NCBI GenBank assembly: GCA_964636085.1
Contig: CAZWPQ010000001.1
Coordinates: forward strand, 69,744-133,743
Direction: 5' to 3'
DNA: 64,000 nt
From: an uncultured Nitrososphaerota archaeon
GTDB lineage: Archaea > Asgardarchaeota > Njordarchaeia > Njordarchaeales > Panguiarchaeaceae
Position 1 is the first letter of the stretch, and each line of letters opens with the position of its first letter. Under the pieces are notes generated by a model that saw only the letters and a list, made by a program, of their open reading frames with translations, did not search any database and was not told the origin of the DNA. Shown one piece after another: positions 5,135 through 50,144 of this stretch. The translations under genes and the position numbers were made by a program.

Positions 5135-5896
5135 CTAGTAATCTTCAGGAAGGTATAACATTGGATCTAAAACCACTATGCCGTTGCGCTCTGCGTGTTC
5201 CAATTTGTTTTTTACTTCTTCCACTATATTTCGTAGTTCCCCATATTTTCTAAGCGCATCTCCCGCAACAAAAATCATTATGCCACCACTACTCGTAAGA
5301 AACACTTCAAATTTCATTGGATCATGCATAAAATCTTCAATTATCTTGTTATTACGCGCCACAATCAGCTTAAGTCTGTTATCTACAAGGAAGAAAAAAT
5401 CCATATATTTGGTATAATCTATTTTAAGATCTAAAATAGAAGATATCTCTACTTTATTCTTAGTATCCCTATCTACTACATAATTAGCCAGCACATTCTC
5501 AATTTTCCTGTACAGTCTCTTAAGCTCAATCTCTAGATAGTCATTTGTCAAGCCATTAGTCTTTATTTTATCGATTGTTTTTCCTATAAGGTTCTCTATT
5601 TCAAATCTAATGCTTTTTATTTTTTCTATCAAAGCGATATTACTAAAATATGCCACTACAGCATATTTCTTATATTTTCTATCGTATGCAGGATCATAAA
5701 CCTTGAACTGGGCTGACAAAACCAAATATTCTTCTGTCTCCAATATAGCCTTGCCCTCCACATATAGGGCATAATCCGCTATCTGAAAACTAGTACTTAT
5801 ATCTAAGGGGAAGTCCTTTGGCAAGATTATTGATATTACGGGGCCCTCCACATCATCAAACTCAGCTAATCCAACGAAGAAATCATATTTCTTCAA
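5135..5896 (-). CDS. tandem roadblock/LC7-like protein, putative partner of the adjacent small GTPase (MglB/Lamtor-like)
   Basis: 253 aa, two beta-alpha-beta-like halves. The C-terminal …KFEVFLTSSGGIMIFVAGDALRKYGELRNIVEEVKNKL… resembles the roadblock fold. Its start abuts the stop of the GTPase gene (5896/5897). Confidence 0.45.
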   Translation of the reverse strand: MKKYDFFVGLAEFDDVEGPVISIILPKDFPLDISTSFQIADYALYVEGKAILETEEYLVLSAQFKVYDPAYDRKYKKYAVVAYFSNIALIEKIKSIRFEIENLIGKTIDKIKTNGLTNDYLEIELKRLYRKIENVLANYVVDRDTKNKVEISSILDLKIDYTKYMDFFFLVDNRLKLIVARNNKIIEDFMHDPMKFEVFLTSSGGIMIFVAGDALRKYGELRNIVEEVKNKLEHAERNGIVVLDPMLYLPEDY

Positions 5897-6886
5897 TTAC
5901 CACCCACCCAGTACCCCAATATTATTCATAATCCCCACTAGTTTTCTACTCGCTCCGGAAATAATACCTCTTATTACATCAATTTGCTTTTTAGGATTAA
6001 ACAAGGAGAAACATATAGGTCGATCATCTATTTTTCTAATACTTATATATGCTTTCGTTGAAGATCCTACATCCATTATTATGTCTATTGATTCATCATC
6101 CCCAACACCGAAGATAATATCCCACAGGTCTTTCCTGAAATCCCTAATTATTCTTTTTTCGTGCTCCAAGGACGTCAACAGTTTGGCTGGGATAATAGAC
6201 AACCAAGAGCCAATCTTTTCATCTCCTTTCATGGCTAATGGGAAACCCATACTATCACTAATAACTACTGTTCTAGAGCCCGTTAGCTTGGCTAACGTAT
6301 CTACAATATCCTCTAGCGTTTTCATGGGAAGTGCTTTAGGAAGTATTATCTCCCTTACAACCCTAAATAGACTTTCTGGATAATATATGCTGGTATTAAA
6401 TACATATATTCTTATATTGGGGAAGACCGATTTCATTTTCTCTATCATACTTTGCAATATTTTCTCCGCGTTTAGAGCATTAGGTAAGTCCTGCTTATGA
6501 GCCAATAATGCAATTGTTATGCTATCAATTTTCCTGTCCTTAATAGCGCTTGACATCAGTTTTAATATATCTACGAACTCTTTCAGCATTAACTTTATTC
6601 TCTCTCTTTTCGCCGCTGCGTCCATAACATATAGTATAACAGTATTTTCATCAAGCAAATTTAATAAAAACTCGATATTCGTTCGCTGAAATCTCCTTTG
6701 GCCTGGGGTAACAAATAGTGATATATCTGCCTTTAACACTTTTAGCATGTATTTTTCTACTCTTGTGGAAGGTTCCGTGTTCAACGCTATTGCTCTATCT
6801 AGAAATATCAAATATTTCCCTATTGATGTTTTGCCCACATTAGCTTGTCCTATCAAAATGACTTTTAATTTAGCCATATTTATCAC
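5897..6886 (-). CDS. small Ras-superfamily GTPase of the MglA/Rag-like type with a ~170-aa C-terminal roadblock-like extension
   Basis: G1 is LIGQANVGKTS. G3 is VTPGQ, with Thr replacing the usual Asp as in MglA. G4 is AHKQD. The C-terminal 170 aa (…VVISDSMGFPLA…ISIRKIDDRPICFSLF…) looks like a roadblock or Rag C-terminal domain. Confidence 0.6.
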   Translation of the reverse strand: MINMAKLKVILIGQANVGKTSIGKYLIFLDRAIALNTEPSTRVEKYMLKVLKADISLFVTPGQRRFQRTNIEFLLNLLDENTVILYVMDAAAKRERIKLMLKEFVDILKLMSSAIKDRKIDSITIALLAHKQDLPNALNAEKILQSMIEKMKSVFPNIRIYVFNTSIYYPESLFRVVREIILPKALPMKTLEDIVDTLAKLTGSRTVVISDSMGFPLAMKGDEKIGSWLSIIPAKLLTSLEHEKRIIRDFRKDLWDIIFGVGDDESIDIIMDVGSSTKAYISIRKIDDRPICFSLFNPKKQIDVIRGIISGASRKLVGIMNNIGVLGGW

Positions 6887-9069: not shown

Positions 9070-9294
9070 TTGGTGATCCATATGCAATTACAAGCATCAA
9101 ATATGAAATTAATAACCTTGCATATCCCCCAGAAATTCATTGAAGCTCTTGACGAGTTAGTTGCGAGAGGATGGTACCCAAATAGAAGTGAGGCTATCAG
9201 AGTTGCTATACGCGACTTTTTGAGAGAGATGAAGAAGTTTATGTTGAGTGCAGAAAACAGTAGAAGATCTAGTACTGGTATCCAGACACTCTAA
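9070..9294 (+). CDS. ribbon-helix-helix (CopG/NikR-type) DNA-binding protein
   Basis: ITLHIPQKFIEALDELVARGWYPNRSEAIRVAIRDFL has the classic beta-strand plus two helices of an RHH. Confidence 0.6.
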   Translation: MVIHMQLQASNMKLITLHIPQKFIEALDELVARGWYPNRSEAIRVAIRDFLREMKKFMLSAENSRRSSTGIQTL

Positions 9295-9772
9295 TCCATT
9301 TGCGTCCGCGTAAATAATAACATGTTATATTCCTCCTTCTTAATTTTTTTACTAATTCCATGTCTATTGTGGCTACTGCCGCATTAATTTTGCCAGCCAT
9401 CCTTGCAATGATCTCATCATAGTACTCATAAAATTTTAGCCTGTTTTTGATTCTGGCTAATTCTTCGATTATGGCCTTATCCACAGTTATGATCTCTATT
9501 TGCATTCTTCTTATTAGCTCTAGTGCAAAGTCTGCTGCTATTTTTATTTTTCCTTTCTTTCTGTTCCTCAATATTTCAAGCTCCTCTATTGTTGTGTCTA
9601 GTACTACAAGCCTAGCTCCTTCTGACACCTCCTTGAGTGCTAATTCTATATTTATTGGCATCCTCTTTTTCCCCTTTATTGCATACATTAGTAGGGACGA
9701 ATCTATGATTATTAATCTATCTCTCCGATTTGAAGTGTTCCCATCCTTTCCTCGGTATCTTTTTTCCAGCAT
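9269..9772 (-). CDS. PIN-domain protein
   Basis: The N-terminal …LIIIDSSLL… motif and downstream acidic residues (VLDTTIEELE) fit a PIN fold. It is operonic with thiL and nadK on the minus strand. Confidence 0.45.
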   Translation of the reverse strand: MLEKRYRGKDGNTSNRRDRLIIIDSSLLMYAIKGKKRMPINIELALKEVSEGARLVVLDTTIEELEILRNRKKGKIKIAADFALELIRRMQIEIITVDKAIIEELARIKNRLKFYEYYDEIIARMAGKINAAVATIDMELVKKLRRRNITCYYLRGRKWIRVSGYQY

Positions 9773-10709
9773 AGAAAACCCCCGAACCCTTTTCTACGTA
9801 TCCTATCTTTATTGGTTCCTTGAGGCCCATCGCTCTAAATTTCTCGATCACTGTCTCCTCTGGCTTGTCCGTGGTGAATATTATCTCAAACTCTTCGCCA
9901 CAATACAATGCTAGGCTTAATGGGTCAAGGTTATTCAACTTTGCATATTGATATACTTCAGATGCGACGGGTATCCTATCTAGAATTATGGCTACCCCAC
10001 TCTTGTTGGCGATATCATTCAATGAGACAGCTAGACCATCCGATGAATCTATAGCCGCTGTAGCTAATTCCCTCAATACGATCGCTATTTTGGGATTTAT
10101 CTTTGGTCTCATATATTCCCGTAGTACTGATTCTATACCTCTTGTTGCAGTTCCAGATTGGAGTAAATAATGTAGAGCAATGGAGGCCACACTAAATTCG
10201 TTAGTAGCCCATACGCTATCTCCCTCCTTTGCTCCACTCCGAGGTATAAACCTGTCCGAAATACCTATGCCAACGCCTGTAATTACAAGGTCTTCGGATC
10301 CTCCAAAGTCCCCTCCAATGTATTTGCATCCATAATACTCACACGCCCTCTTTATACCGTCTAGCAACTCTCTAATATGCTTTATTTCCATATTGCTTGG
10401 AGCACTTATAGAGCACATTAAATATGTGGGTAATCCACTCTTGGCTATTACATCACTAAATGTCATTGTTACTGTTTTCCACCCTATGCTGTAGTAGTCT
10501 ATACCCGAGGGCGCGTCCGTACTTTCCACAAATGTGTCCACATTTACTATCATCACCCCTCGGCCACAGGGAAGGGGAAACGCGTCCTCGTCAACAAAGA
10601 TATTGTCATTCGATATATATTCAAATATTATCCCCTCTAGAATCCTTCGTTCTCCAAGTTCTGATAGCCTCATCCTATCTTCCATATCTAAGCGACACCA
10701 TACCTGCAA
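9717..10709 (-). CDS. thiL: thiamine-monophosphate kinase
   Basis: AIR-synthase-related fold: …LSELGERRIL… N-terminus, DSSDGL motif, and GGD…G glycine-rich segment. The track start is probably too far upstream. Confidence 0.65.
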   Translation of the reverse strand: MQVWCRLDMEDRMRLSELGERRILEGIIFEYISNDNIFVDEDAFPLPCGRGVMIVNVDTFVESTDAPSGIDYYSIGWKTVTMTFSDVIAKSGLPTYLMCSISAPSNMEIKHIRELLDGIKRACEYYGCKYIGGDFGGSEDLVITGVGIGISDRFIPRSGAKEGDSVWATNEFSVASIALHYLLQSGTATRGIESVLREYMRPKINPKIAIVLRELATAAIDSSDGLAVSLNDIANKSGVAIILDRIPVASEVYQYAKLNNLDPLSLALYCGEEFEIIFTTDKPEETVIEKFRAMGLKEPIKIGYVEKGSGVFYAGKKIPRKGWEHFKSER

Positions 10710-11535
10710 CTTTTCTTATTCTACTATGCCTCCCCCAAAGTCTTATGAATTTGGTTACGGCATTCGTATACTTTATTTCCACTTCCTCGCCTCTAGCTAT
10801 TTCTCCTACTTCCACACCATCCGCTATAAGTATAGCATCCATCCATGTTTCCATGACCTTAACTCTAATAATCGAGTCCGACGGGAATATCATTGGAAAA
10901 CTGGACCTAAATAGTGGTGCTATAGGCGTGACAACGAATGACTCCACGCTTTCTGATACTATCGGCCCACCAACCGATAATGCATAAGAAGAACTCCCAA
11001 TGGGTGTCGATATAATTAGGCCATCGCATAGTATCTCCCCCACTTTCTCATTATCCACGCTCATCTCCAAACCCAATATTTTCCCTGGTTTTTTTGTCAT
11101 GATAACATATTCATTAAGTATTGAGGGGAACGCATGTGCCCCATGTTCTATATGGGCCTTTGCCCTATGTATTGCTATTATATAAAAATCCCCCTTCTCT
11201 ATCTTATCCACACTATTGTAGAATTCAGCGATAGATAATTCGGTTAGGAGGCCAATCTTTCCAAAATTTATCCCAAGAATTGGCTTCTCATATTTTTCTA
11301 TCTCCCTTGAGGCATACAAAATTGTGCCATCACCACCCAAGGTTATGACAAAATCACACGATTTTAAGGCCCTATCCTCAGGTGCGGAATCTAAGGTTAC
11401 TACTTGAAGAACATTCCAACCCCGTCTCCTTATAAAATTTAAAAAGTTATCCAACTCTACTATAACGTTCTCTTTAGGGGCAACGAATATTACTACATTA
11501 GGTTTACCTGAGAAGCCCTCTCCTCCGTATTTCAT
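10675..11535 (-). CDS. nadK: NAD(+) kinase
   Basis: GGDGT motif (…ITLGGDGTILYA…), NE/D motif and DGLIISTPIGSSSYALSVGGPIV are characteristic of NadK. Confidence 0.75.
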   Translation of the reverse strand: MKYGGEGFSGKPNVVIFVAPKENVIVELDNFLNFIRRRGWNVLQVVTLDSAPEDRALKSCDFVITLGGDGTILYASREIEKYEKPILGINFGKIGLLTELSIAEFYNSVDKIEKGDFYIIAIHRAKAHIEHGAHAFPSILNEYVIMTKKPGKILGLEMSVDNEKVGEILCDGLIISTPIGSSSYALSVGGPIVSESVESFVVTPIAPLFRSSFPMIFPSDSIIRVKVMETWMDAILIADGVEVGEIARGEEVEIKYTNAVTKFIRLWGRHSRIRKVAGMVSLRYGR

Positions 11536-12013
11536 CTATTATCACACCCACTATTTTCTCGAAATCACCATTACTCGTATCTATTACTACTAGCTTAGAT
11601 TTCCCATAATTCGAAATAGCTTCCCCAAGTATCACCCCGAACCTTTCGGCCTCTAGGTTTTCATCAATTTTATCTTGCGAAAAACCCCTTCTTTCTAGTC
11701 TCTCCCTTAGAACATAAGGCTCACACACCAATACTATACACAAATCAACCCAATCCGATGGCAGCGCCTCCGCACCAATCCCCTCTATGATGACACTTTT
11801 CTTTGTGCTAATAATCCCCCCCAATTTTTTCCTTAGCCTATCCTCGTCTATAATATATGCAGAACGTTGCCTATCATAGCCACAGTATAGCTTGTTCTCT
11901 ATGACAAATTTGCTTAAATGTATGACATGGAAACCATAGCTAGATAACATGTCGGCGAATGTAGACTTACCAGTACCTGGGGAACCACATATTGCGATTA
12001 CCACCAACAGCAA
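11504..12013 (-). CDS. Fap7/adenylate-kinase-6-like putative nucleoside kinase
   Basis: ICGSPGTGKST P-loop in a 169-aa protein, the size and architecture of archaeal Fap7. Confidence 0.55.
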   Translation of the reverse strand: MLLVVIAICGSPGTGKSTFADMLSSYGFHVIHLSKFVIENKLYCGYDRQRSAYIIDEDRLRKKLGGIISTKKSVIIEGIGAEALPSDWVDLCIVLVCEPYVLRERLERRGFSQDKIDENLEAERFGVILGEAISNYGKSKLVVIDTSNGDFEKIVGVIIDEIRRRGLLR

Positions 12014-12132
12014 TCACCAAGAGTCGAATAATTCACAATCGCCAGTATATAATGCCCTAGGCATTAACATAAACTTATTAATTTAATACAGATGAATTAT
12101 ACTTTAATTTGATGTGCCTATGATGATTTAAA

Positions 12133-14079
12133 ATGACCGACATACAAAATATAGTGCGGGATAAGGTTGGAACAATATTTGGTAGGGCGGGAGTTACTCA
12201 ATTCTCCATGAGGGTTGAGCAGGGAAAATCTATACAAAAGGGACAATTTCTTCTTGTGATGGGTGATGGACGCATATTATTATCCCGCGTCATCGATATT
12301 GAGACAAGAGTCACCGAGACTATTGGTTTCTGTGAAATACTTGGAGAATGCGAAGACTCTAAACTAAAACAGTGCAACAGGCCTGTTAGAGCTGGATATG
12401 AGATTTATAATCCCTCTGGAGAGTTCCTTAGTAGATTAGTTACAAGAACAACAAGGGAGGAGGGGCTATATATAGGCAAAATTCTCACGCATCCAGATTT
12501 CGTACCAGTCTATTATCGCCCAAAGGATCTCAGAGTCCACGTTCTTGTATCAGCCACAACAGGAGGGGGGAAATCCTACACACTATCAGTTTTTATTGAA
12601 GAGCTAATTAAGAAAATGAGAAAGAAAAAAAATTTTGCAATAATAATTTTTGATGTCCATGATGAATACTCCGGGCTCGCTGTCCCTAACCAACATGATA
12701 AACAGGTCGAAGCGCTTAAAGAGTATAATTTAGAGCCACAAGGATTTGAAGATGATGTCCTAATATTTGATTGGGAGAATAACCCGCCCTATCTCAGCCC
12801 GATCTTCTCGCCTGATCGTCTCATGTTCATTTTCTCTATGAAAGAGCTAAGACTTGCCCTCCAACTTAAGCAATTAATGGGGGAGAAATCCCAAATGCAT
12901 ATTGATGACCTATATAGGCTAGTGGAAATAAGTGATCTACACTTCCAAACAAAGCAGGCCTTGCTCACAAGAATCGGATCGCTAAGAGCCAGTGGATTCC
13001 TATCATATAACTATATCAAGCCCTCGGAATACTGCCAGCCTGGAAAAGTAACTATTTTTAGATTAATCGGTACACCACTTGGCGATTTGGGTGTACGTTT
13101 CTTCGTGGCGGATATCGTCCGCCAAGTATTTGAAGACAAAAAAGCTGGGAGAATTCAGCATAATGTGATTCTTGTTGTCGATGAGGCCCACTTATTTGCA
13201 CCGGCAAAAGGTAAGGACGATCCAGTTAAGGAAATCCTTATCCGTGTCGCAAGAGAAGGACGCAAAATGGGTGTCTGGTTGATATTAGCTACACAGTCAC
13301 CCAGAGATCTAAGCGATGTTATAATAATTAACTGCTCCACAATAATAGCACTAAAGATGCAACGACATGATGTTTCAAAGCTGAGCCAACTATTTGGAAT
13401 ACCAAAAAAACTTGTCGAAGTACTTACATCCGTTTCTCCAGGCGAATGCTTTATAAAGGCACCATCATTCACAATACCCCTTATGGTTAAGGTAAGACCA
13501 AGACAATCATCAGAACTTAAAGCAGAATATGTCAATTATGCACAACTAATAAAGAAAGTCGAAGAAATTGCTAAAAAAACCAGAAATATGATAGCTAAAC
13601 TAAGAAAGAAAACCCATCCAGAACCCCCACCGCCCCCATCTCCTCCAATAACCCCAAAACCAATAAGACAGACACCAAAACCTCCTGAGCCCACACCCTC
13701 GCGGGTATTTGAGGTAAGAAAAAAATATCAACGACCGCCTAGCCGACTACACAGAGAGACCGCTAAAATAAGAAGGGACGAAGAGGCTCTTGACTTCGTA
13801 GTTGGTATATTGGCAGATCAAATAAAAGGCCATGATTACGCTGCACTTGGTTTAATACGAGCAATTCTTACCTATGGGGCCCTGGATATTGTTGAGGCCC
13901 TTCATTATGCGTCGGAGGATGTTATCGATTCGCTGATAGCTGACGATATAATAAGAATCACAGATTCAAAAATTGTGCTAAATCTAGATAAAAGAATAGA
14001 GGAGTATACTGGAAAGCGTGCCTCGGATTATCTAATAGAGCTGGCAAAAAGAAAACTTTGGGATCTATTAAAGACCTAA
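12133..14079 (+). CDS. HerA/FtsK-superfamily (DUF87-type) ATPase with Pro-rich linker and C-terminal helical domain
   Basis: N-terminal barrel-like region, Walker A SATTGGGKS, Walker B VILVVDEAH, and an …ATQSP… sensor-like segment. A HPEPPPPPSPPITPKPIRQTPKPPEPTP linker precedes a ~130-aa C-terminal domain. Confidence 0.6.
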   Translation: MTDIQNIVRDKVGTIFGRAGVTQFSMRVEQGKSIQKGQFLLVMGDGRILLSRVIDIETRVTETIGFCEILGECEDSKLKQCNRPVRAGYEIYNPSGEFLSRLVTRTTREEGLYIGKILTHPDFVPVYYRPKDLRVHVLVSATTGGGKSYTLSVFIEELIKKMRKKKNFAIIIFDVHDEYSGLAVPNQHDKQVEALKEYNLEPQGFEDDVLIFDWENNPPYLSPIFSPDRLMFIFSMKELRLALQLKQLMGEKSQMHIDDLYRLVEISDLHFQTKQALLTRIGSLRASGFLSYNYIKPSEYCQPGKVTIFRLIGTPLGDLGVRFFVADIVRQVFEDKKAGRIQHNVILVVDEAHLFAPAKGKDDPVKEILIRVAREGRKMGVWLILATQSPRDLSDVIIINCSTIIALKMQRHDVSKLSQLFGIPKKLVEVLTSVSPGECFIKAPSFTIPLMVKVRPRQSSELKAEYVNYAQLIKKVEEIAKKTRNMIAKLRKKTHPEPPPPPSPPITPKPIRQTPKPPEPTPSRVFEVRKKYQRPPSRLHRETAKIRRDEEALDFVVGILADQIKGHDYAALGLIRAILTYGALDIVEALHYASEDVIDSLIADDIIRITDSKIVLNLDKRIEEYTGKRASDYLIELAKRKLWDLLKT

Positions 14080-14336
14080 TATGCTGTTCCCTCCAGTTTT
14101 ATCTTAATGTTTGATGGTGCTATAATTATAAACTCCGCCCCGACCCCAAGAACATTCAGTCTTAACTTATTACCAGCCTCTAAGATTCTCTTAACTACCT
14201 CTCTTCTAACACTTCTACTTTTGAAAGCAGAAAAACTTGCTACTATCACATTTCCTTTTCTGACTTCACTTAATATTCTAATAAGATCCCTGTGTGTCGA
14301 GACCTTTATAGCTACTATCTTCATGCCTCCTTCCAT
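14076..14336 (-). CDS. SepF-like (DUF552) protein
   Basis: 86 aa. …RKGNVIVASFSAFKSRSVRREVVKRILEAGNKLRLNVLGVGAEFIIIAPSNIKI resembles the SepF C-terminal domain (…LLAPSNVEI). Confidence 0.5.
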   Translation of the reverse strand: MEGGMKIVAIKVSTHRDLIRILSEVRKGNVIVASFSAFKSRSVRREVVKRILEAGNKLRLNVLGVGAEFIIIAPSNIKIKLEGTAY

Positions 14337-15437: not shown

Positions 15438-15749
15438 TCAACGTTTAGAGGTAAATTTAATGCCCATAGGCCTTATATGCTCTGGTCTAGCAATGATTTT
15501 CTTATATTTGCCTCCATCCCTGACTAGTATAACATAGGCTTTGCCTCTTTTCTCAATGATCTCCCCTACCTTCCCATGAAACCTTTTATAGGGCATGCCC
15601 TTATGTATGCTTGGATCAATCTTTATTACTACCTTCTCGCCTATACCGTACTGGTATAGGATTGCAGACATCGGAGGTAGTCCCCGCTCCTTGCATCTCT
15701 TGGATAGTAACTTTCTTGTGCGTGACCGTGGACCTTTAGAGTGCCTCAT
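15438..15749 (-). CDS. rpl21e: 50S ribosomal protein L21e
   Basis: MRHSKGPRSRTRKLLSKR… N-terminus and KRFHGKVGEI core are typical of L21e. Confidence 0.8.
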   Translation of the reverse strand: MRHSKGPRSRTRKLLSKRCKERGLPPMSAILYQYGIGEKVVIKIDPSIHKGMPYKRFHGKVGEIIEKRGKAYVILVRDGGKYKKIIARPEHIRPMGIKFTSKR

Positions 15750-16258
15750 TGTTTGCTCACCATTCTATATGCTTCGATTAGGTCCATATCTTCATCCTTA
15801 ATTATTGTTTTTAAAATCTTGTACATCAGTTCTCGCTTTATAGCAAATAGCTTTGTTATATCTTTTAGTAGTATAGCAATCAAATCATGTACTCCCCTAT
15901 CTTCATCAACATTGACAACGGAGGGCATTTTGTCCACAAAGAAAGTCATGTCAAGACTTCCCTTCTTAAAAACTATGACGCCTCGCTCTCTTAATAGTTT
16001 CGAAATGACCTCTTGGGAGTCGTCATCCACGGGGTCAAGAAAGGCTATATAGTCGACTGAACCACTCGAAATTTCAGGGGGAGGTGATACTTTCGACACG
16101 CTGAAAATATATACTCCTATTTCCTTTTTGTTAGAAGCCTCCAAATAAACTTTTTGTAATCTACCACTAAGCTTTGTTAGTTTTAAGACCTCGAAAAAAA
16201 TTTCTCGTATTAATTCCATAATTTTATCGTTAGCTACAATTGCGAAGCAATACTCCAT
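15746..16258 (-). CDS. hypothetical protein (170 aa) upstream of L21e
   Basis: Overlaps the rpl21e start by 4 nt and is co-transcribed with it. No motif. Confidence 0.4.
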   Translation of the reverse strand: MEYCFAIVANDKIMELIREIFFEVLKLTKLSGRLQKVYLEASNKKEIGVYIFSVSKVSPPPEISSGSVDYIAFLDPVDDDSQEVISKLLRERGVIVFKKGSLDMTFFVDKMPSVVNVDEDRGVHDLIAILLKDITKLFAIKRELMYKILKTIIKDEDMDLIEAYRMVSKQ

Positions 16259-16267
16259 CCTTAGTCC

Positions 16268-17626
16268 CTATACAAAAACTACTATTAATTTCCTTTTTTT
16301 GACTGCCTTTTTAATTTCTTCCTCATAGTCATCGCTTATTATCTGTGCCCTTGACCCTATTACTTCTGATATACTCTTTTCGATTGGCCTATAGCTCCCC
16401 TCAGGGACAAACTCTGTCGAAAGAACAAAAATAATTTTTGCCTCAAGACCCATAAATTCCTGTATTGATTCTCCTAACTCTGCAAATTGGGATATATGAG
16501 AGACAACAATTAATGTTCTCTTCCCAGAATCCACTAGTTTTGTATATAGATCCATAAAATCATCCACATATTCTGCACTTGAATCAATCTCTATTGGCTT
16601 AACAACAATAACCTCGGCCTCATGCAATATTTCTTTTACGATGCTTACAGCCTCGCTAGCCCTACCGCTATATATTTTGACCTCACTTCTCAGTTTCACT
16701 CCTTCGACAGCTTCATAATACCCTCTACCCAGAACATTCATTATCTGATTATACAGGATATCGCCTAGACTTGGAGTAGAAGATTCTAATGCTTCTATAT
16801 TCGTAATGTTCGGTATCCTGTTCAGTTCACCCCTCTCTATAAGCTCTTGAGATATCATTCTCAGATAACTCGATACAAGACCACTCAAGCTTATAATGTT
16901 GTTATGTTTAAGCATTATGTTTCTGAGATAACGACGGATCCTATTATTTAATTCTACAATACCATAAATCGTAAGATCTTTCTGCATATTCGCCCTACTA
17001 ACAATATCAAGCACATAATTGATACACGAACCTATACCAATAATTGCTGTTTTCCCCGAACCTACGCACAAGTTAAACGACAATTCGTTTGATGAGACGC
17101 CACGCTCGATGGACGCGAAATCTATTTCCTCCTCAAATATCTCTAGATTAATTATATCGGGCTCACAAACCGATACAATTACAGGTCTTTGTCTACCAGA
17201 GAAAACCTTAGTTGCTAAGGCAACCATCGTCGGGAAATTTGGAGGAAGATATATGGGGAGGTTCTTATCAATAGCCAGCTTTATTAATGTATTGAGGGCT
17301 TCTCTGCTTCCACACAATATATTTAGATATATGTTCTTGTTCTCATTTTGCTCTAAAATGGGTACCATCTTCTCTACAATGTAGAATATATTGTAGACAT
17401 TGTGTTTCTCTGCAGACATAATCGCTATAGAGTCGCCTTCCGACTTCATTATACGTACAAACATCGCATAGGGATTTGGAACATATATTTTTCTTATTTT
17501 TCCTAGCATGATCCTGTTGGATATTTTGAGGGATATTGGATCCATATTTACATAAAATACTTCAACCCCATAGCGAGAAGCTATGCGTTCTAGCATACTT
17601 GGAACTGACTGCCTATCCTTACCCAA
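16268..17626 (-). CDS. conserved hypothetical protein (452 aa)
   Basis: Long ORF with mixed alpha/beta character. No confident assignment. Confidence 0.4.
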   Translation of the reverse strand: MGKDRQSVPSMLERIASRYGVEVFYVNMDPISLKISNRIMLGKIRKIYVPNPYAMFVRIMKSEGDSIAIMSAEKHNVYNIFYIVEKMVPILEQNENKNIYLNILCGSREALNTLIKLAIDKNLPIYLPPNFPTMVALATKVFSGRQRPVIVSVCEPDIINLEIFEEEIDFASIERGVSSNELSFNLCVGSGKTAIIGIGSCINYVLDIVSRANMQKDLTIYGIVELNNRIRRYLRNIMLKHNNIISLSGLVSSYLRMISQELIERGELNRIPNITNIEALESSTPSLGDILYNQIMNVLGRGYYEAVEGVKLRSEVKIYSGRASEAVSIVKEILHEAEVIVVKPIEIDSSAEYVDDFMDLYTKLVDSGKRTLIVVSHISQFAELGESIQEFMGLEAKIIFVLSTEFVPEGSYRPIEKSISEVIGSRAQIISDDYEEEIKKAVKKRKLIVVFV

Positions 17627-47217: not shown

Positions 47218-49059
47218 TCAATCTCTTTTTGTTATTTTATGTCTCAGTAGAGCCCACGGTATGAGTATTTTCATGGGAATACTAGAGTTGCTCCTAGAAT
47301 ATATAACGGCACACCTAGTTGGCAGGTTCATAAGCACAGTTTTATCTACAGGTAATTCCATGAATTTTTTGAGGGTTTTTATTTGGAGAGGTGTCAGGCC
47401 AAATAATGTGTATGTATTAACAGTTTTTAGTATCCTAGGATTCAAATCTTCTGGACTTTGAGTCGAGAATTCTATCCTTAGCCTGAATTTTCTGCCTTCC
47501 CTAGCAATTCTTTCAACCCATGAAACTGTCCTCATGACCCATTCTTTTTCGTTAGCATCGTATACAAATCTAGGAAAATAATTATGTGCCTCGTCGATTA
47601 GCAGCATTACTGGAGGAAATAATTCATTGTAGTCTCTAAGCTTTGTCATTGCTATCTTACTAATGATATGCATTACTACGATTCTCCTAGCAACAATTGA
47701 CGGAACCATATCAACTCTTATAATGTTAACAGTCCTAGACCGTAGCATATACTTAATATCAATATCTGAAACTCCCCCAGCATCAAAAATTCCCTCCTCC
47801 AATACCGCGGCAATCCTACGCAATATTGCTTCTCTCGTAGCCTCACTAATCATATCCTTTGGAAAGCTCGCATTGTCGAGCCACCTGTAAAACTTGTCCA
47901 ATGTATTGTTTCTTTCCCTATACACACTCCTAAATCTTCTAACTAGTTTCGGCAAGACATAATACCCTTGGGGAGACAATGCTGGGAGATAATACTGAAG
48001 AAAACTAGGACCAATATCGGAAAAACGTATAGTAAAATGCATCGTTTTTACTTTGCCATGGAAATCATCCACCTCGACTTCCTGCTCAAGTTTTGGAATC
48101 CATACAATAATATCCTCTATACTCTTAGGCATTATCCCAAGATCCCTCCATATTTTTATATCAAAATCGCTGGGTTTTGTTTCATCATCCTCTTTTATGG
48201 GATCCTCACAAATCATTGAATACTCATTGTGTGTGTCTATAACAACAACCGCTCCCTCCACATACTCAACAAAGTTATATATATCGTTCTTACACTTCGC
48301 CGTTTTGCCTTTACCTGTAGTGCCAGTTACTAACTCATGCTCAAAGAGAAGAGATTTTCTCATTCTATACGGAATACATTTCCCCGTTCGGGGATCGACT
48401 ATAACTTCGTCACCAAATATCAGGGCGCCATATACGGGGCCATCTGAAGGCAATCCATAGATTATATTAATTATTTCCTGCGAGGGTATATACGCAGGGG
48501 CCCTTATGTGGGGAGCGAAATTCACATCGCCCCTAGTTACGATATTACCTCCATTTCTTTTCAATGTACAGATTGGACTCAACCCCACCAAGGGCACTAG
48601 TTCAAGGAATTCTGTGTCTCCACTCTCTATCATCTGGGATGTTAGTATATTTCTTGCATCGGATACATCTCTATCCACAAGCTCATGCCACGCTACATCA
48701 TACCCCATCATCCTGATTATGCCTGCTATGTATTCACCATGTATGTAGTCAAATATGATTAACGGGAAGCCTAGTCTTATTCTCGATGACCACTCTGAGA
48801 AAAGCCTTATCCACAATAACTTCGAGGCTACCGACCCCCCAACATGGACTGTAAGTCTTTTAGGTATTACTAGATACCCTACCTCTACACAGCCACTGAG
48901 CCAAGGATCCTGTATCTCATCACCTACTTTCTTTTTAAGACAAGGACGTGTAGATAATCGAAAAATCGCCTCGCCAAGTATCTCTGGTTCCTCTCTACTC
49001 ACAATTTTTTCTTTTCTCGATATTACGAGGTACTTATCTAAACTCAAGCTTGACCCCAC
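47218..49059 (-). CDS. herA: HerA-type (FtsK/HerA superfamily, DUF87) ATPase, downstream partner of NurA
   Basis: Walker A …VTGTTGKGKT…, Walker B …VMLLIDEAHNYF…, and an …FSTQSPEDL… sensor-like motif. Its start overlaps the stop of the nurA-like gene by 16 nt. Confidence 0.6.
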   Translation of the reverse strand: MGSSLSLDKYLVISRKEKIVSREEPEILGEAIFRLSTRPCLKKKVGDEIQDPWLSGCVEVGYLVIPKRLTVHVGGSVASKLLWIRLFSEWSSRIRLGFPLIIFDYIHGEYIAGIIRMMGYDVAWHELVDRDVSDARNILTSQMIESGDTEFLELVPLVGLSPICTLKRNGGNIVTRGDVNFAPHIRAPAYIPSQEIINIIYGLPSDGPVYGALIFGDEVIVDPRTGKCIPYRMRKSLLFEHELVTGTTGKGKTAKCKNDIYNFVEYVEGAVVVIDTHNEYSMICEDPIKEDDETKPSDFDIKIWRDLGIMPKSIEDIIVWIPKLEQEVEVDDFHGKVKTMHFTIRFSDIGPSFLQYYLPALSPQGYYVLPKLVRRFRSVYRERNNTLDKFYRWLDNASFPKDMISEATREAILRRIAAVLEEGIFDAGGVSDIDIKYMLRSRTVNIIRVDMVPSIVARRIVVMHIISKIAMTKLRDYNELFPPVMLLIDEAHNYFPRFVYDANEKEWVMRTVSWVERIAREGRKFRLRIEFSTQSPEDLNPRILKTVNTYTLFGLTPLQIKTLKKFMELPVDKTVLMNLPTRCAVIYSRSNSSIPMKILIPWALLRHKITKRD

Positions 49060-50144
49060 CTATATAGATACCTTCCCCACCTTAGTTGATTGTACATAAG
49101 GATGTCGGCTATGCCACATTTTTTGAATGCTGATAATACCCTAAACGCAATATATCTCTTCTCCTCATCACAAAACCGTGCAATCTTGTCGGCACGACCA
49201 ATCACATAACTGAAACCATTCCCAAGCTGCAGATCAGCTGATATTATCTCCAATACTTGATCCTTTCCATATTCCTCCAGAACGCAATAGGGAAATTCAT
49301 ACCTAAAAACTACCCTTCCCTTTGTCTTCACATAGAAGAAAACAGGCTTCATATAATAAGGCACGCCATTAACTAGCTTATTGTCATATAGAAACATGAT
49401 GGTTCGTGTATTAGGAGGGAGATACATTGATAATAAATCGGCGTCTGTCAACGCCTCCACATTTGTTATTCCTGATAGCCAAGTTGAGAAGGGATTTTTC
49501 ACGATTTTGATGCAGATTATTGCCCTATCTACAAGAGATTTGATCGCGGAATAAAACTTTTTAAAATACCTCCTAGAAATTATTGGACCATCCCAGAATA
49601 CGACATCTAACACACTCCCATATTCTTCGGCCAATTCTCTAATAGTAACCGTCTCTAGAGACATAAGAATATCCCTCACTTTCCTTCTAACTTGCTCTGG
49701 TACTCCTCCTCGCCGCCGAATAATCGACACGGAAAACCTCCAGACATCTTTTGCACCAAATGTTTCATTATTTCTCATGCTGAGACCGAAGACAGCAGTC
49801 CTCGCAATTATGACCCTGAAGGGATGTAGCCTTAATGAGAAAGCTCCCCCATCAACACCCACAACATTTTTCCCTTTAAATATGGTCAACGGATTTATCT
49901 CTGGCATTCCCTTTATGATCCCATCCTCTAAAGGTATTATGCCACTATCCTCACTCCGATCAACTATTTTTAATAGTATATCATCTCCAAGTTTTCTACT
50001 TAGGTATTTTGATAAAACCTCCTTAATAGCCGATTCTATAGCATCCATAATCGCCAGACTTGGTATATACTCACTTTCTAAACGGTGCTTAACGCTAAGC
50101 ATTGGATGACATAATTTATCCAACTTTAAAGCACGTGCGGGCAA
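49044..50144 (-). CDS. nurA: NurA-like 5'-3' nuclease
   Basis: 366 aa with …VVGVDGGAFSLRLHPFRVIIARTAV…, comparable to NurA motif I (…DGS). It is translationally coupled to the downstream HerA-type ATPase. Confidence 0.5.
   Translation of the reverse strand: MPARALKLDKLCHPMLSVKHRLESEYIPSLAIMDAIESAIKEVLSKYLSRKLGDDILLKIVDRSEDSGIIPLEDGIIKGMPEINPLTIFKGKNVVGVDGGAFSLRLHPFRVIIARTAVFGLSMRNNETFGAKDVWRFSVSIIRRRGGVPEQVRRKVRDILMSLETVTIRELAEEYGSVLDVVFWDGPIISRRYFKKFYSAIKSLVDRAIICIKIVKNPFSTWLSGITNVEALTDADLLSMYLPPNTRTIMFLYDNKLVNGVPYYMKPVFFYVKTKGRVVFRYEFPYCVLEEYGKDQVLEIISADLQLGNGFSYVIGRADKIARFCDEEKRYIAFRVLSAFKKCGIADILMYNQLRWGRYLYRWGQA

Follow-up and report, generated by a model that had tools for sequence, protein, structure and literature searches.

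To our knowledge, FtsK is missing from most archaea whose division depends on FtsZ and SepF, which raises the question of how DNA is cleared from their closing septum; HerA-type pumps were reportedly proposed in 2004 to take the FtsK role in archaea. Here we describe herA2, a gene for a HerA-family ATPase in a stretch of 64,000 nucleotides from an uncultured archaeon (GenBank assembly GCA_964636085.1, contig CAZWPQ010000001.1, positions 69,744 to 133,743), which is referred to throughout as the window, together with the relatives of this gene in other archaeal genomes. What is new here is a HerA subfamily that stands apart from the rest, is narrow in distribution and has a novel family of C-terminal domain; its link to cell division is suggestive and unproven. 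Tentatively, and with a confidence somewhat short of even, we read the product of herA2 as a NurA-independent HerA-type DNA translocase with a tethered adaptor, whose preferred role is in division.

Several described systems frame this reading. SepF of Bacillus subtilis is reported to help recruit the soluble FtsK-like translocase SftA (PMC9320952). SepF co-occurs with FtsZ in most archaeal taxa, and the endosomal sorting complex ESCRT-III is absent from Korarchaeota (PMC8178401). In haloarchaea, CdrS controls ftsZ1, ftsZ2 and sepF (PMC8406309, PMC7439475). Haloferax volcanii is without HerA-NurA (PMC7776575), and its protein HVO_1301 (D4GXE5, DUF87, 588 residues) is an interactor of CdpB1 and is found at midcell (bioRxiv 10.64898/2026.07.16.738847, July 2026).

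HerA2 has the fold and catalytic motifs of HerA

The gene and the HerA-like parts of its product are as follows, from the N-terminus.

12133..14079, plus strand: herA2, HerA-family ATPase of 648 residues, stop codon included in the coordinates (open reading frame, Pfam, homologues, AlphaFold2, Foldseek)
12154..12414, plus strand: HAS-barrel domain, residues 8-94 (all-beta in the AlphaFold2 model, strands E8-19 to E90-94)
12466..13503, plus strand: RecA-like ATPase core, residues 112-457 (motif positions, alignment, AlphaFold2 secondary structure)
12553-12576, plus strand: Walker A motif ATTGGGKS, residues 141-148
residues 227-300, plus strand: helical-bundle insert within the RecA-like core (AlphaFold2)
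13174-13191, plus strand: Walker B motif VVDEAH, residues 348-353
residues 374-391, plus strand: REGRK and QSPR motifs
13537..13614, plus strand: long C-terminal 'brace' helix, residues 469-494 (AlphaFold2 helix H469-494, with a predicted local distance difference test score, pLDDT, of about 92-94)

The start codon of herA2 is the first ATG following a stop, and its homologues have the same start point. The window is a segment of archaeal chromosome packed with housekeeping genes, with an unremarkable GC content of ~39%. The family was searched for by word index and, exhaustively, with a profile against 1.8 billion cluster representatives. The word index returned 27 proteins at E<=1e-118, of which the complete ones are 642-679 residues long and 41-79% identical to the window protein, and the first match beyond these 27 drops to E-35; in the profile search about 6 representatives score >590 bits, after which the scores fall to 262 bits. 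Judging by full-length homologues at these distances, herA2 is a real gene under selection rather than a chance open reading frame. As working labels, we use clade A for members 62-79% identical to the window protein and clade B for those 41-50% identical, which include Njordarchaeum guaymaensis.

An earlier note on this DNA had placed the protein in the HerA/FtsK clade on the strength of its two Walker motifs, and this placement is borne out by Pfam, NCBIfam, PADLOC, a PDB sequence search and Foldseek. The Pfam DUF87/HerA central domain is matched at E 4.6e-18 (66.6 bits against a cut-off of 23.2). The AAA_10 match is weak, as is that to the Pfam HAS-barrel model (E 6.6e-4, 20.2 bits, under the cut-off of 25.2), and FtsK_SpoIIIE reaches 23.4 bits, under its cut-off of 24, over residues 327-390 only (64 residues). 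The top NCBIfam matches are two HerA models of double-strand-break repair, two anti-phage HerA models and CedD, all far under their cut-offs; the two repair equivalogs give 91.6 bits against a cut-off of 970 (NF040819) and 69.5 against 800 (NF040937). The best PADLOC matches are defence-system HerA models (E 2e-30) with the ATPase core alone covered, and the PDB sequence matches are HerA-type chains throughout, the best of them the defence-system HerA 8xau (E 2e-20). The catalytic motifs, including REGRK and Q..R, align residue by residue to the HerA chains 8xau and 9x1l, and columns K147, D350, E351, R374, E375, G376, R377, K378, Q388 and R391 are invariant in the family (25 sequences).

An AlphaFold2 model of HerA2, built with the 25-sequence family alignment, has a mean pLDDT of 86 and a predicted template modelling score (pTM) of 0.72. 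Its nearest Foldseek match is the HerA-NurA complex of T. kodakarensis (9x1m, E 8.6e-27), and HerA of S. solfataricus (4d2i) is matched at E 5.5e-26 with a template modelling score (TM), on the target, of 0.73-0.76; the bacterial repair and defence HerAs come after the archaeal HerAs. The Foldseek alignments to HerA structures extend over the whole length of the protein. As modelled, HerA2 has the HerA fold, with HAS barrel, RecA-like core with helical insert, and brace helix, and its catalytic motifs are intact.

Two small departures from canonical HerA were also seen. Some 12 residues ahead of the Walker A lysine, residues 132-136 (12526..12540) read DLRVH in clade A, where clade B and canonical HerA read DLARH (a few members have DFARH or DLAKH); we take the R-H motif ahead of Walker A to be the arginine-finger position in Sulfolobus HerA. 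At residues 388-391 (13294..13305) most of the family has TQSPR, as compared with the canonical SQRP motif. Two probable catalytic arginines of the family are in this way displaced by one to two residues.

A disordered tether carries a winged-helix domain

Beyond the brace helix lie two further segments.

13615..13755, plus strand: disordered low-complexity tether, residues 495-541, beginning HPEPPPP at residue 495 (36% proline, net charge +7)
13756..14076, plus strand: C-terminal MarR-like winged-helix domain, residues 542-648, 107 residues (AlphaFold2, Foldseek and a hidden Markov model, HMM)

Residues 496-545 have a pLDDT <50 in the AlphaFold2 model, and a tether of 43-69 residues occurs in all 25 family members. 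In clade A it is basic and rich in proline, in clade B it is rich in Lys and Glu, so that its conserved property is disorder and length, not proline. The proline-rich, low-complexity linker of the earlier note is therefore low in complexity in every member, and rich in proline in one sub-clade only.

A domain of about 130 residues, helical and possibly of winged-helix type, had been suspected to follow. Its winged-helix nature is upheld: modelled alone, the C-terminal domain has a pLDDT of 91.6 and the topology a1-a2-b-a3-a4-b-b-a5-a6, which is the MarR order, its terminal helices correspond to those of the MarR dimer interface, and all of the 20 best PDB matches in Foldseek are MarR-family proteins, albeit with weak scores (E 0.05-0.2, TM about 0.42). 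Its size has to be revised to about 107 residues, because AlphaFold2 orders residues 542-648 and disorders 496-545. No Pfam model, those of MarR included, matches this domain in any of 24 members, and no relative was found among PDB sequences. An HMM built from the domain retrieves only members of the herA2 family and a long Korarchaeota variant, P0119. In sequence the domain is thus a new family, and its fold is MarR-like.

Helix a4, which occupies the 'recognition' position, has a net charge of 0 to -4 and is negative in 23 of 24 members; its sequence in the window protein is ASEDVIDSLIAD. There is only a very short helix a3, the wing is mildly basic at most, and the domain of the window protein has an overall net charge of -5. 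With a 'recognition' helix that is neutral or acidic, the domain is unlikely to read DNA in the classical manner, and from the model we infer a dimerising or partner-binding module and not a reader of DNA sequence. No membrane module was found in HerA2, where the N-terminus is the HAS barrel and all ordered segments are soluble domains in the AlphaFold2 model (no dedicated transmembrane predictor was run). Of the idea that the tether leads to a membrane or partner-binding module, the membrane half can accordingly be dropped, and partner binding is kept as the probable function.

NurA is paired with a different HerA

A second HerA gene in the window lies next to a nuclease gene.

47218..49059, minus strand: HerA1 (Pfam DUF87, E 4e-10)
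49044..50144, minus strand: NurA (Pfam NurA, E 7e-13)

The NurA gene overlaps the start of herA1 by 16 bp, the pair (47218..50144) lies 33 kb from herA2, and the pairing is kept in relatives of both clades. This agrees with the description of herA2 in the earlier note as a 'second' HerA. The note's claim that it has no nuclease partner also held when we widened the comparison: neither NurA nor Mre11 was detected by precomputed Pfam matches or by tblastn in the 10 kb around herA2, be it in the window or at 18 related loci, and there is no adjacent or translationally coupled nuclease gene at herA2 in any of the 18. The 64,000-nucleotide window holds no Mre11 or Rad50. A scenario in which nurA lies just upstream of herA2 in other genomes was considered and is rejected, NurA being faithfully paired with HerA1. 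Among the contexts checked, the nearest sequence outside the family, P0030 (Thermoprotei), lies in a NurA-HerA-Mre11-Rad50 operon. We suggest that HerA2 is best read as a derived paralogue of repair HerA, because it is itself an orphan, NurA is paired with HerA1, and P0030 is encoded in a repair operon.

Alternatively, HerA2 could be the canonical HerA of its lineage with a C-terminal addition, using NurA (and Mre11-Rad50) in trans, so that the operon alone would have broken up. HerA2 indeed scores above HerA1 on canonical HerA HMMs (91.6 against 42.6 bits for NF040819), it retains the HAS barrel, on which NurA docks in solved complexes, and the lack of Mre11 and Rad50 in the window implies that this genome has its repair genes scattered in any case. 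Against it stand the conserved overlap of NurA with herA1, the fact that herA2 never adjoins NurA in the 18 loci, and the distance of its 91.6 bits from the equivalog cut-off; moreover, the conserved tether and winged-helix module and the fixed pairing of herA2 with fap7 (see below) argue for a separate, stable function. Because HerA2 outscores HerA1 on the canonical models we retain the NurA-in-trans reading, which we consider improbable.

The NurA-HerA1 pair is itself very divergent, the 42.6 bits of HerA1 to the curated HerA model lying below the score of HerA2. The pair is confined to the same lineages as herA2 and to Hodarchaeota (34% identity), with 26 homologues at E<=1e-10. In clade B (Njordarchaeia-type; L098/L099 9774..10385 and surroundings) it is flanked by genes for Snf7 (ESCRT-III), TRAP_beta and ribosomal protein S26e. 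That gene content is Asgard-like, yet the herA2 family and its synteny are shared with genomes deposited as Korarchaeota.

The family is narrowly distributed and vertically inherited

The source records of the herA2 family are labelled Korarchaeota, Njordarchaeota/Njordarchaeales/Njordarchaeia, or generically Thermoproteota, Nitrososphaerota or Promethearchaeati. On present sequence searches, the family is confined to Korarchaeia/Njordarchaeia-type archaea. A phylogeny, which the earlier note had called for, sets it apart: in a neighbour-joining tree of the ATPase core the herA2 family, P0119 included, is recovered in 100/100 bootstraps. Its neighbours in the tree are weakly supported (bootstrap 0-36), and the sister group is not resolved. 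Next in the profile search, at 180-262 bits, come proteins of Heimdall and Hod archaea with 881-913 residues and many DPANN proteins with 620-715 residues. As a distribution and synteny common only to genomes deposited as Korarchaeota and Njordarchaeota, those of herA2 bear on the relationship of the two lineages.

The identity of HerA2 across clades follows that of the neighbouring genes, and plasmid and phage collections hold no relative above 27% identity. We conclude that herA2 is a vertically inherited chromosomal gene amid housekeeping genes. These observations also bear on the possibility that HerA2 is a HerA-type ATPase of anti-virus defence or of a mobile element, with an unrecognised effector, as might be supposed from its best PADLOC matches and its best PDB sequence match, all of them to defence-system HerAs. 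Those matches, however, span the shared ATPase core alone, the gene holds a fixed housekeeping position in every genome, and no Sir2, DUF4297 or other effector gene adjoins it. With normal composition, a vertical pattern of inheritance and no close plasmid or phage relatives, a mobile-element or defence origin is rejected, and such a function for HerA2 is very improbable indeed.

A long member of the family is P0119 (L093/L094 8001..11051), a Korarchaeota protein of 1016 residues. It has a longin-like domain at the N-terminus (Pfam Fuz_longin_1, E 1.8e-4, under the cut-off) and, in place of the disordered linker, tandem winged-helix repeats (E3_UFM1_ligase, PCI, FeoC and DeoR-like matches). 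At its locus the fap7 pairing is lost, and the gene is followed by those for a helix-hairpin-helix (HhH) protein and a metallo-beta-lactamase, with Hjc close by.

The invariant neighbour of herA2 is the fap7 operon

Upstream of herA2, and facing away from it, is an operon of four genes.

12014..12132: AT-rich divergent promoter region of 119 bp, shared by fap7 and herA2
11504..12013, minus strand: Fap7-like kinase/NTPase (Pfam AAA_18, E 1.4e-24; PRK03839 at 95 bits, under the cut-off of 152)
10675..11535, minus strand: NAD kinase, second gene of the operon (Pfam NAD_kinase and NAD_kinase_C)
9717..10709, minus strand: thiamine-phosphate kinase ThiL (TIGR01379 at 203.8 bits, above the cut-off of 184; present in all loci)
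9269..9772, minus strand: PIN_9 predicted nuclease, last gene of the operon (Pfam PIN_9, E 2.7e-11; present in all loci)

The gene order given in the earlier note, in which herA2 is divergent from a Fap7-like kinase gene and convergent with a SepF-like gene, is correct, with a 119-bp spacer on the first side and an overlap of 4 bp between the 3' ends on the second. The synteny check it had asked for showed the Fap7-like gene adjoining herA2 divergently in all 18 loci, without nurA. At every one of these loci herA2 is paired in this way with a fap7-(nadK)-thiL-PIN_9 operon, the NAD kinase gene being present in clade A and, for clade B, at some of the loci. Between fap7 and herA2, clade A has a spacer of 106-135 bp and clade B one of 22-49 bp. 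In the window this spacer contains a perfect palindrome, AATGCC-CTA-GGCATT at 12051-12065, and the orthologous spacers hold other short inverted repeats. No operator or promoter motif is shared across the orthologous spacers, or with the upstream regions of sepF/rnhB and of cgi121 with its neighbouring ribbon-helix-helix (RHH) gene, beyond chance 7-mers.

Fap7 and PIN-domain nucleases act in small-subunit rRNA maturation. HerA2 might then remodel RNA or ribonucleoprotein, with the divergent promoter in common serving to co-regulate it with the Fap7/PIN_9 genes of ribosome maturation, an idea encouraged by the presence of the pairing in all loci and by the very short spacer (22-135 bp overall). 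Yet the characterised motors of the HerA clade all act on DNA, the unrelated metabolic kinases ThiL and NAD kinase make the operon look like a mixed housekeeping unit, and overlapping promoters can by themselves keep genes adjacent. We regard a role on RNA as quite improbable.

PIN_9 also enters into a different reading, namely that HerA2 is a translocase of DNA repair or recombination working with a partner other than NurA (PIN_9 itself, or a factor of the Hjc/HhH/metallo-beta-lactamase type) that is recruited by the winged-helix domain. The suggested descent of HerA2 from repair HerA and the repair operon around P0030, the nearest outside relative checked, point this way, as do the higher score of HerA2 than of NurA-linked HerA1 on NF040819, the PIN_9 gene in the divergent operon at every locus, and the HhH, metallo-beta-lactamase and Hjc genes at the P0119 locus. 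However, PIN_9 is three to four genes off on the opposite strand and, together with Fap7, looks more like ribosome-maturation machinery; the 18 loci offer no adjacent or coupled nuclease gene, unlike every characterised HerA system; and the lineage already has a dedicated NurA-HerA pair. On balance we regard a repair role with a partner other than NurA as the main rival, possible though less likely than not, and continue to prefer a NurA-independent translocase with a role in division.

The housekeeping genes of the window include those for aIF2-gamma, Cgi121, ThiL, NAD kinase, Fap7, RNase HII, L21e, V-ATPase subunits, tRNA synthetases and TmcA. A Rag/Arf-like small GTPase (5897..6886, minus strand; Gtr1_RagA, E 5e-14) is followed by a 253-residue protein without a Pfam match (5135..5896, minus strand); this pair is kept in clade A loci (L001, L006) and may bear on the longin-like fusions of HerA2 relatives. 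Between the genes for L21e and methionine aminopeptidase lie two more, 15746..16258 (minus strand, 170 residues) and 16268..17626 (minus strand, 452 residues), whose products match no Pfam or NCBIfam model and are present in all clade A loci at 21-40% identity.

A possible link to cell division

Two neighbours of herA2 and its divergent operon suggest a connection with division.

14076..14336, minus strand: SepF-like protein of 86 residues (Pfam SepF, E 8.5e-6, 26.4 bits against a cut-off of 27, 72/72 model positions)
9070..9294, plus strand: CdrS/aCcr1-like ribbon-helix-helix protein of 74 residues (NCBIfam CdrS, E 6e-15, 55 bits; aCcr1_fam, 23 bits)

A profile of 8 orthologues of the SepF-like protein matches the archaeal and bacterial SepF structures 3zie, 3zig, 3zih and 7al1, with a best E of 4e-8. 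The sepF gene lies within four genes of herA2 in 10 of the 12 informative distinct genomes, including all eight of clade B (8/8). It is found in three arrangements: convergent with herA2 in the window, in L008 and in N. guaymaensis; after PIN_9 and co-directional with it in L005, L013 and L015; and convergent with PIN_9 in L012, L014, L017 and L018. The RHH protein is 76-82% identical across clade A loci, where its neighbours are 34-60% identical, and its gene stands beside sepF in clade B loci L004 and L005. By its sequence matches it is a candidate cell-division regulator. At its 3' end the RHH gene has 26 bp in common with PIN_9.

The SepF-like proteins of clade A (that of the window, and L008 11545..11790) consist, at 84-86 residues, of the core only and are without an N-terminal amphipathic membrane-targeting helix or linker; the clade B orthologues have 127-156 residues and basic-hydrophobic N-termini. 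For clade A there is thus either another, full-length SepF elsewhere in the genome or a different means of membrane anchoring. No FtsZ signature was found in the 64,000-nucleotide window.

From these elements a mechanism can be sketched. By analogy with the HerA family, six HerA2 subunits would assemble into a ring and, at the expense of ATP, draw double-stranded DNA through the pore of that ring. The six tethered winged-helix domains would, given their features, probably pair up, bind a partner and localise or regulate the motor. The partner would be part of the SepF/FtsZ division apparatus, and the motor would clear or segregate the chromosome at division. That HerA2 couples DNA translocation to FtsZ/SepF-based cell division, as FtsK and the soluble SftA do, is on this analogy possible, with a likelihood well short of even. 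The fuller proposal, in which HerA2 is the archaeal functional counterpart of FtsK/SftA and is recruited to the SepF/FtsZ ring by its tethered winged-helix domains, is unlikely as it stands.

Several observations weigh against a role in division. It is gene proximity alone that ties herA2 to the division machinery, and the invariant partner of herA2 is the fap7 operon and not sepF. In two of the four clade A species that are informative, namely the L001 group and the L006 group, no sepF lies nearby. Synteny extends over the entire region as a block of housekeeping genes. The three arrangements can be explained by a single inversion of a five-gene block together with a single inversion of sepF, so that repeated re-association of sepF with herA2 is not demonstrated. 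The CdrS match of the RHH protein falls under the curated cut-off (55 against 100 bits). In the loci examined, no division genes lie near the more distant Heimdall, Hod and DPANN relatives, and the company of P0119, next to HhH protein, metallo-beta-lactamase and Hjc genes, indicates recombination or repair.

Even so, as a vertically inherited gene that has shed its nuclease, gained an adaptor and come to stand beside sepF and a CdrS-like gene, herA2 offers a concrete candidate for the missing archaeal translocase, and it fits the finding, reported in 2026, that Haloferax has an orphan HerA-domain protein at midcell. If the proposal is true, the 2004 suggestion of HerA as an archaeal FtsK would be realised, and HVO_1301, as the orphan DUF87 protein at midcell in Haloferax, would provide a tractable analogue. 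Even without the link to division, the family shows a HerA motor re-used in archaeal housekeeping outside end resection and defence.

Comparison with known systems

HVO_1301 has a DUF87 domain in common with HerA2 and is likewise an orphan, in an archaeon that divides with FtsZ and SepF; the Haloferax protein is 60 residues shorter. Word-index searches with the single protein or with a 12-sequence profile, DPANN and Asgard relatives included, recovered no haloarchaeal orthologue of HerA2. Haloarchaeal plasmids encode DUF87 proteins that are 23-27% identical to it, one of them in an Mre11-Rad50-NurA cluster.

The HerA-like proteins of DPANN (Woesearchaeota-type) and of Heimdall and Hod archaea, with 620-913 residues (P0120-P0125, P0138, P0143), are like HerA2 orphans in the loci examined, and several of them have a segment resembling a winged helix-turn-helix (wHTH) in a C-terminal extension of roughly 200 residues. 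Homology of these extensions with the C-terminal domain of HerA2 was considered and is unsupported, there being no HMM match and an hhalign probability of 16% over the wHTH core only. Unlike the herA2 family, with which they form no robust group (bootstrap 0-36), these relatives have no fap7 pairing and no sepF nearby.

MarR regulators have the same order of secondary-structure elements as the C-terminal domain of HerA2, including the dimer-interface helices. The HerA2 domain differs in being part of an ATPase, in having a helix a4 that is acidic or neutral and not basic and a very short helix a3, and in matching no MarR model of Pfam.

With the anti-phage HerA systems (Sir2-HerA, DUF4297-HerA and TdpAB), HerA2 has the HerA ATPase core in common. 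Unlike them, it has no effector gene, a housekeeping context in all loci, vertical inheritance and an extra C-terminal module.

FtsK, SpoIIIE and SftA belong to the same superfamily of ring-forming pumping ATPases as HerA2, and their design is analogous in that a motor is combined with a low-complexity linker and a small winged helix. SftA is soluble, with its recruitment to the Z-ring reportedly supported by SepF (PMC9320952), and herA2 has a linked sepF gene. HerA2 is nonetheless not a member of the FtsK family: its FtsK_SpoIIIE match is below the Pfam cut-off and it has no membrane domain. In FtsK the linker comes ahead of the motor and the gamma domain straight after it, whereas in HerA2 a disordered linker of 47 residues separates the motor from the winged helix; the C-terminal domain of HerA2, with its acidic helix a4, is MarR-like and not FtsK-gamma.

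The closest described system is the archaeal HerA of HerA-NurA(-Mre11-Rad50) end resection (4d2i; 9x1l/9x1m), which has the same fold, domain order and catalytic motifs as HerA2 and is structurally the best match to it (E about 1e-26, with a TM on the target of 0.55-0.76). In the structural alignments the two are 17-18% identical; identity to the nearest sequences outside the family, such as P0030, is 26-27%. Unlike the HerA of end resection, herA2 is never linked to NurA, Mre11 or Rad50, and its genome keeps a separate NurA-HerA pair. The extra C-terminal domain that the earlier note had found absent from canonical HerA is real: HerA2 carries a tether and a winged helix in addition to the domains of HerA.

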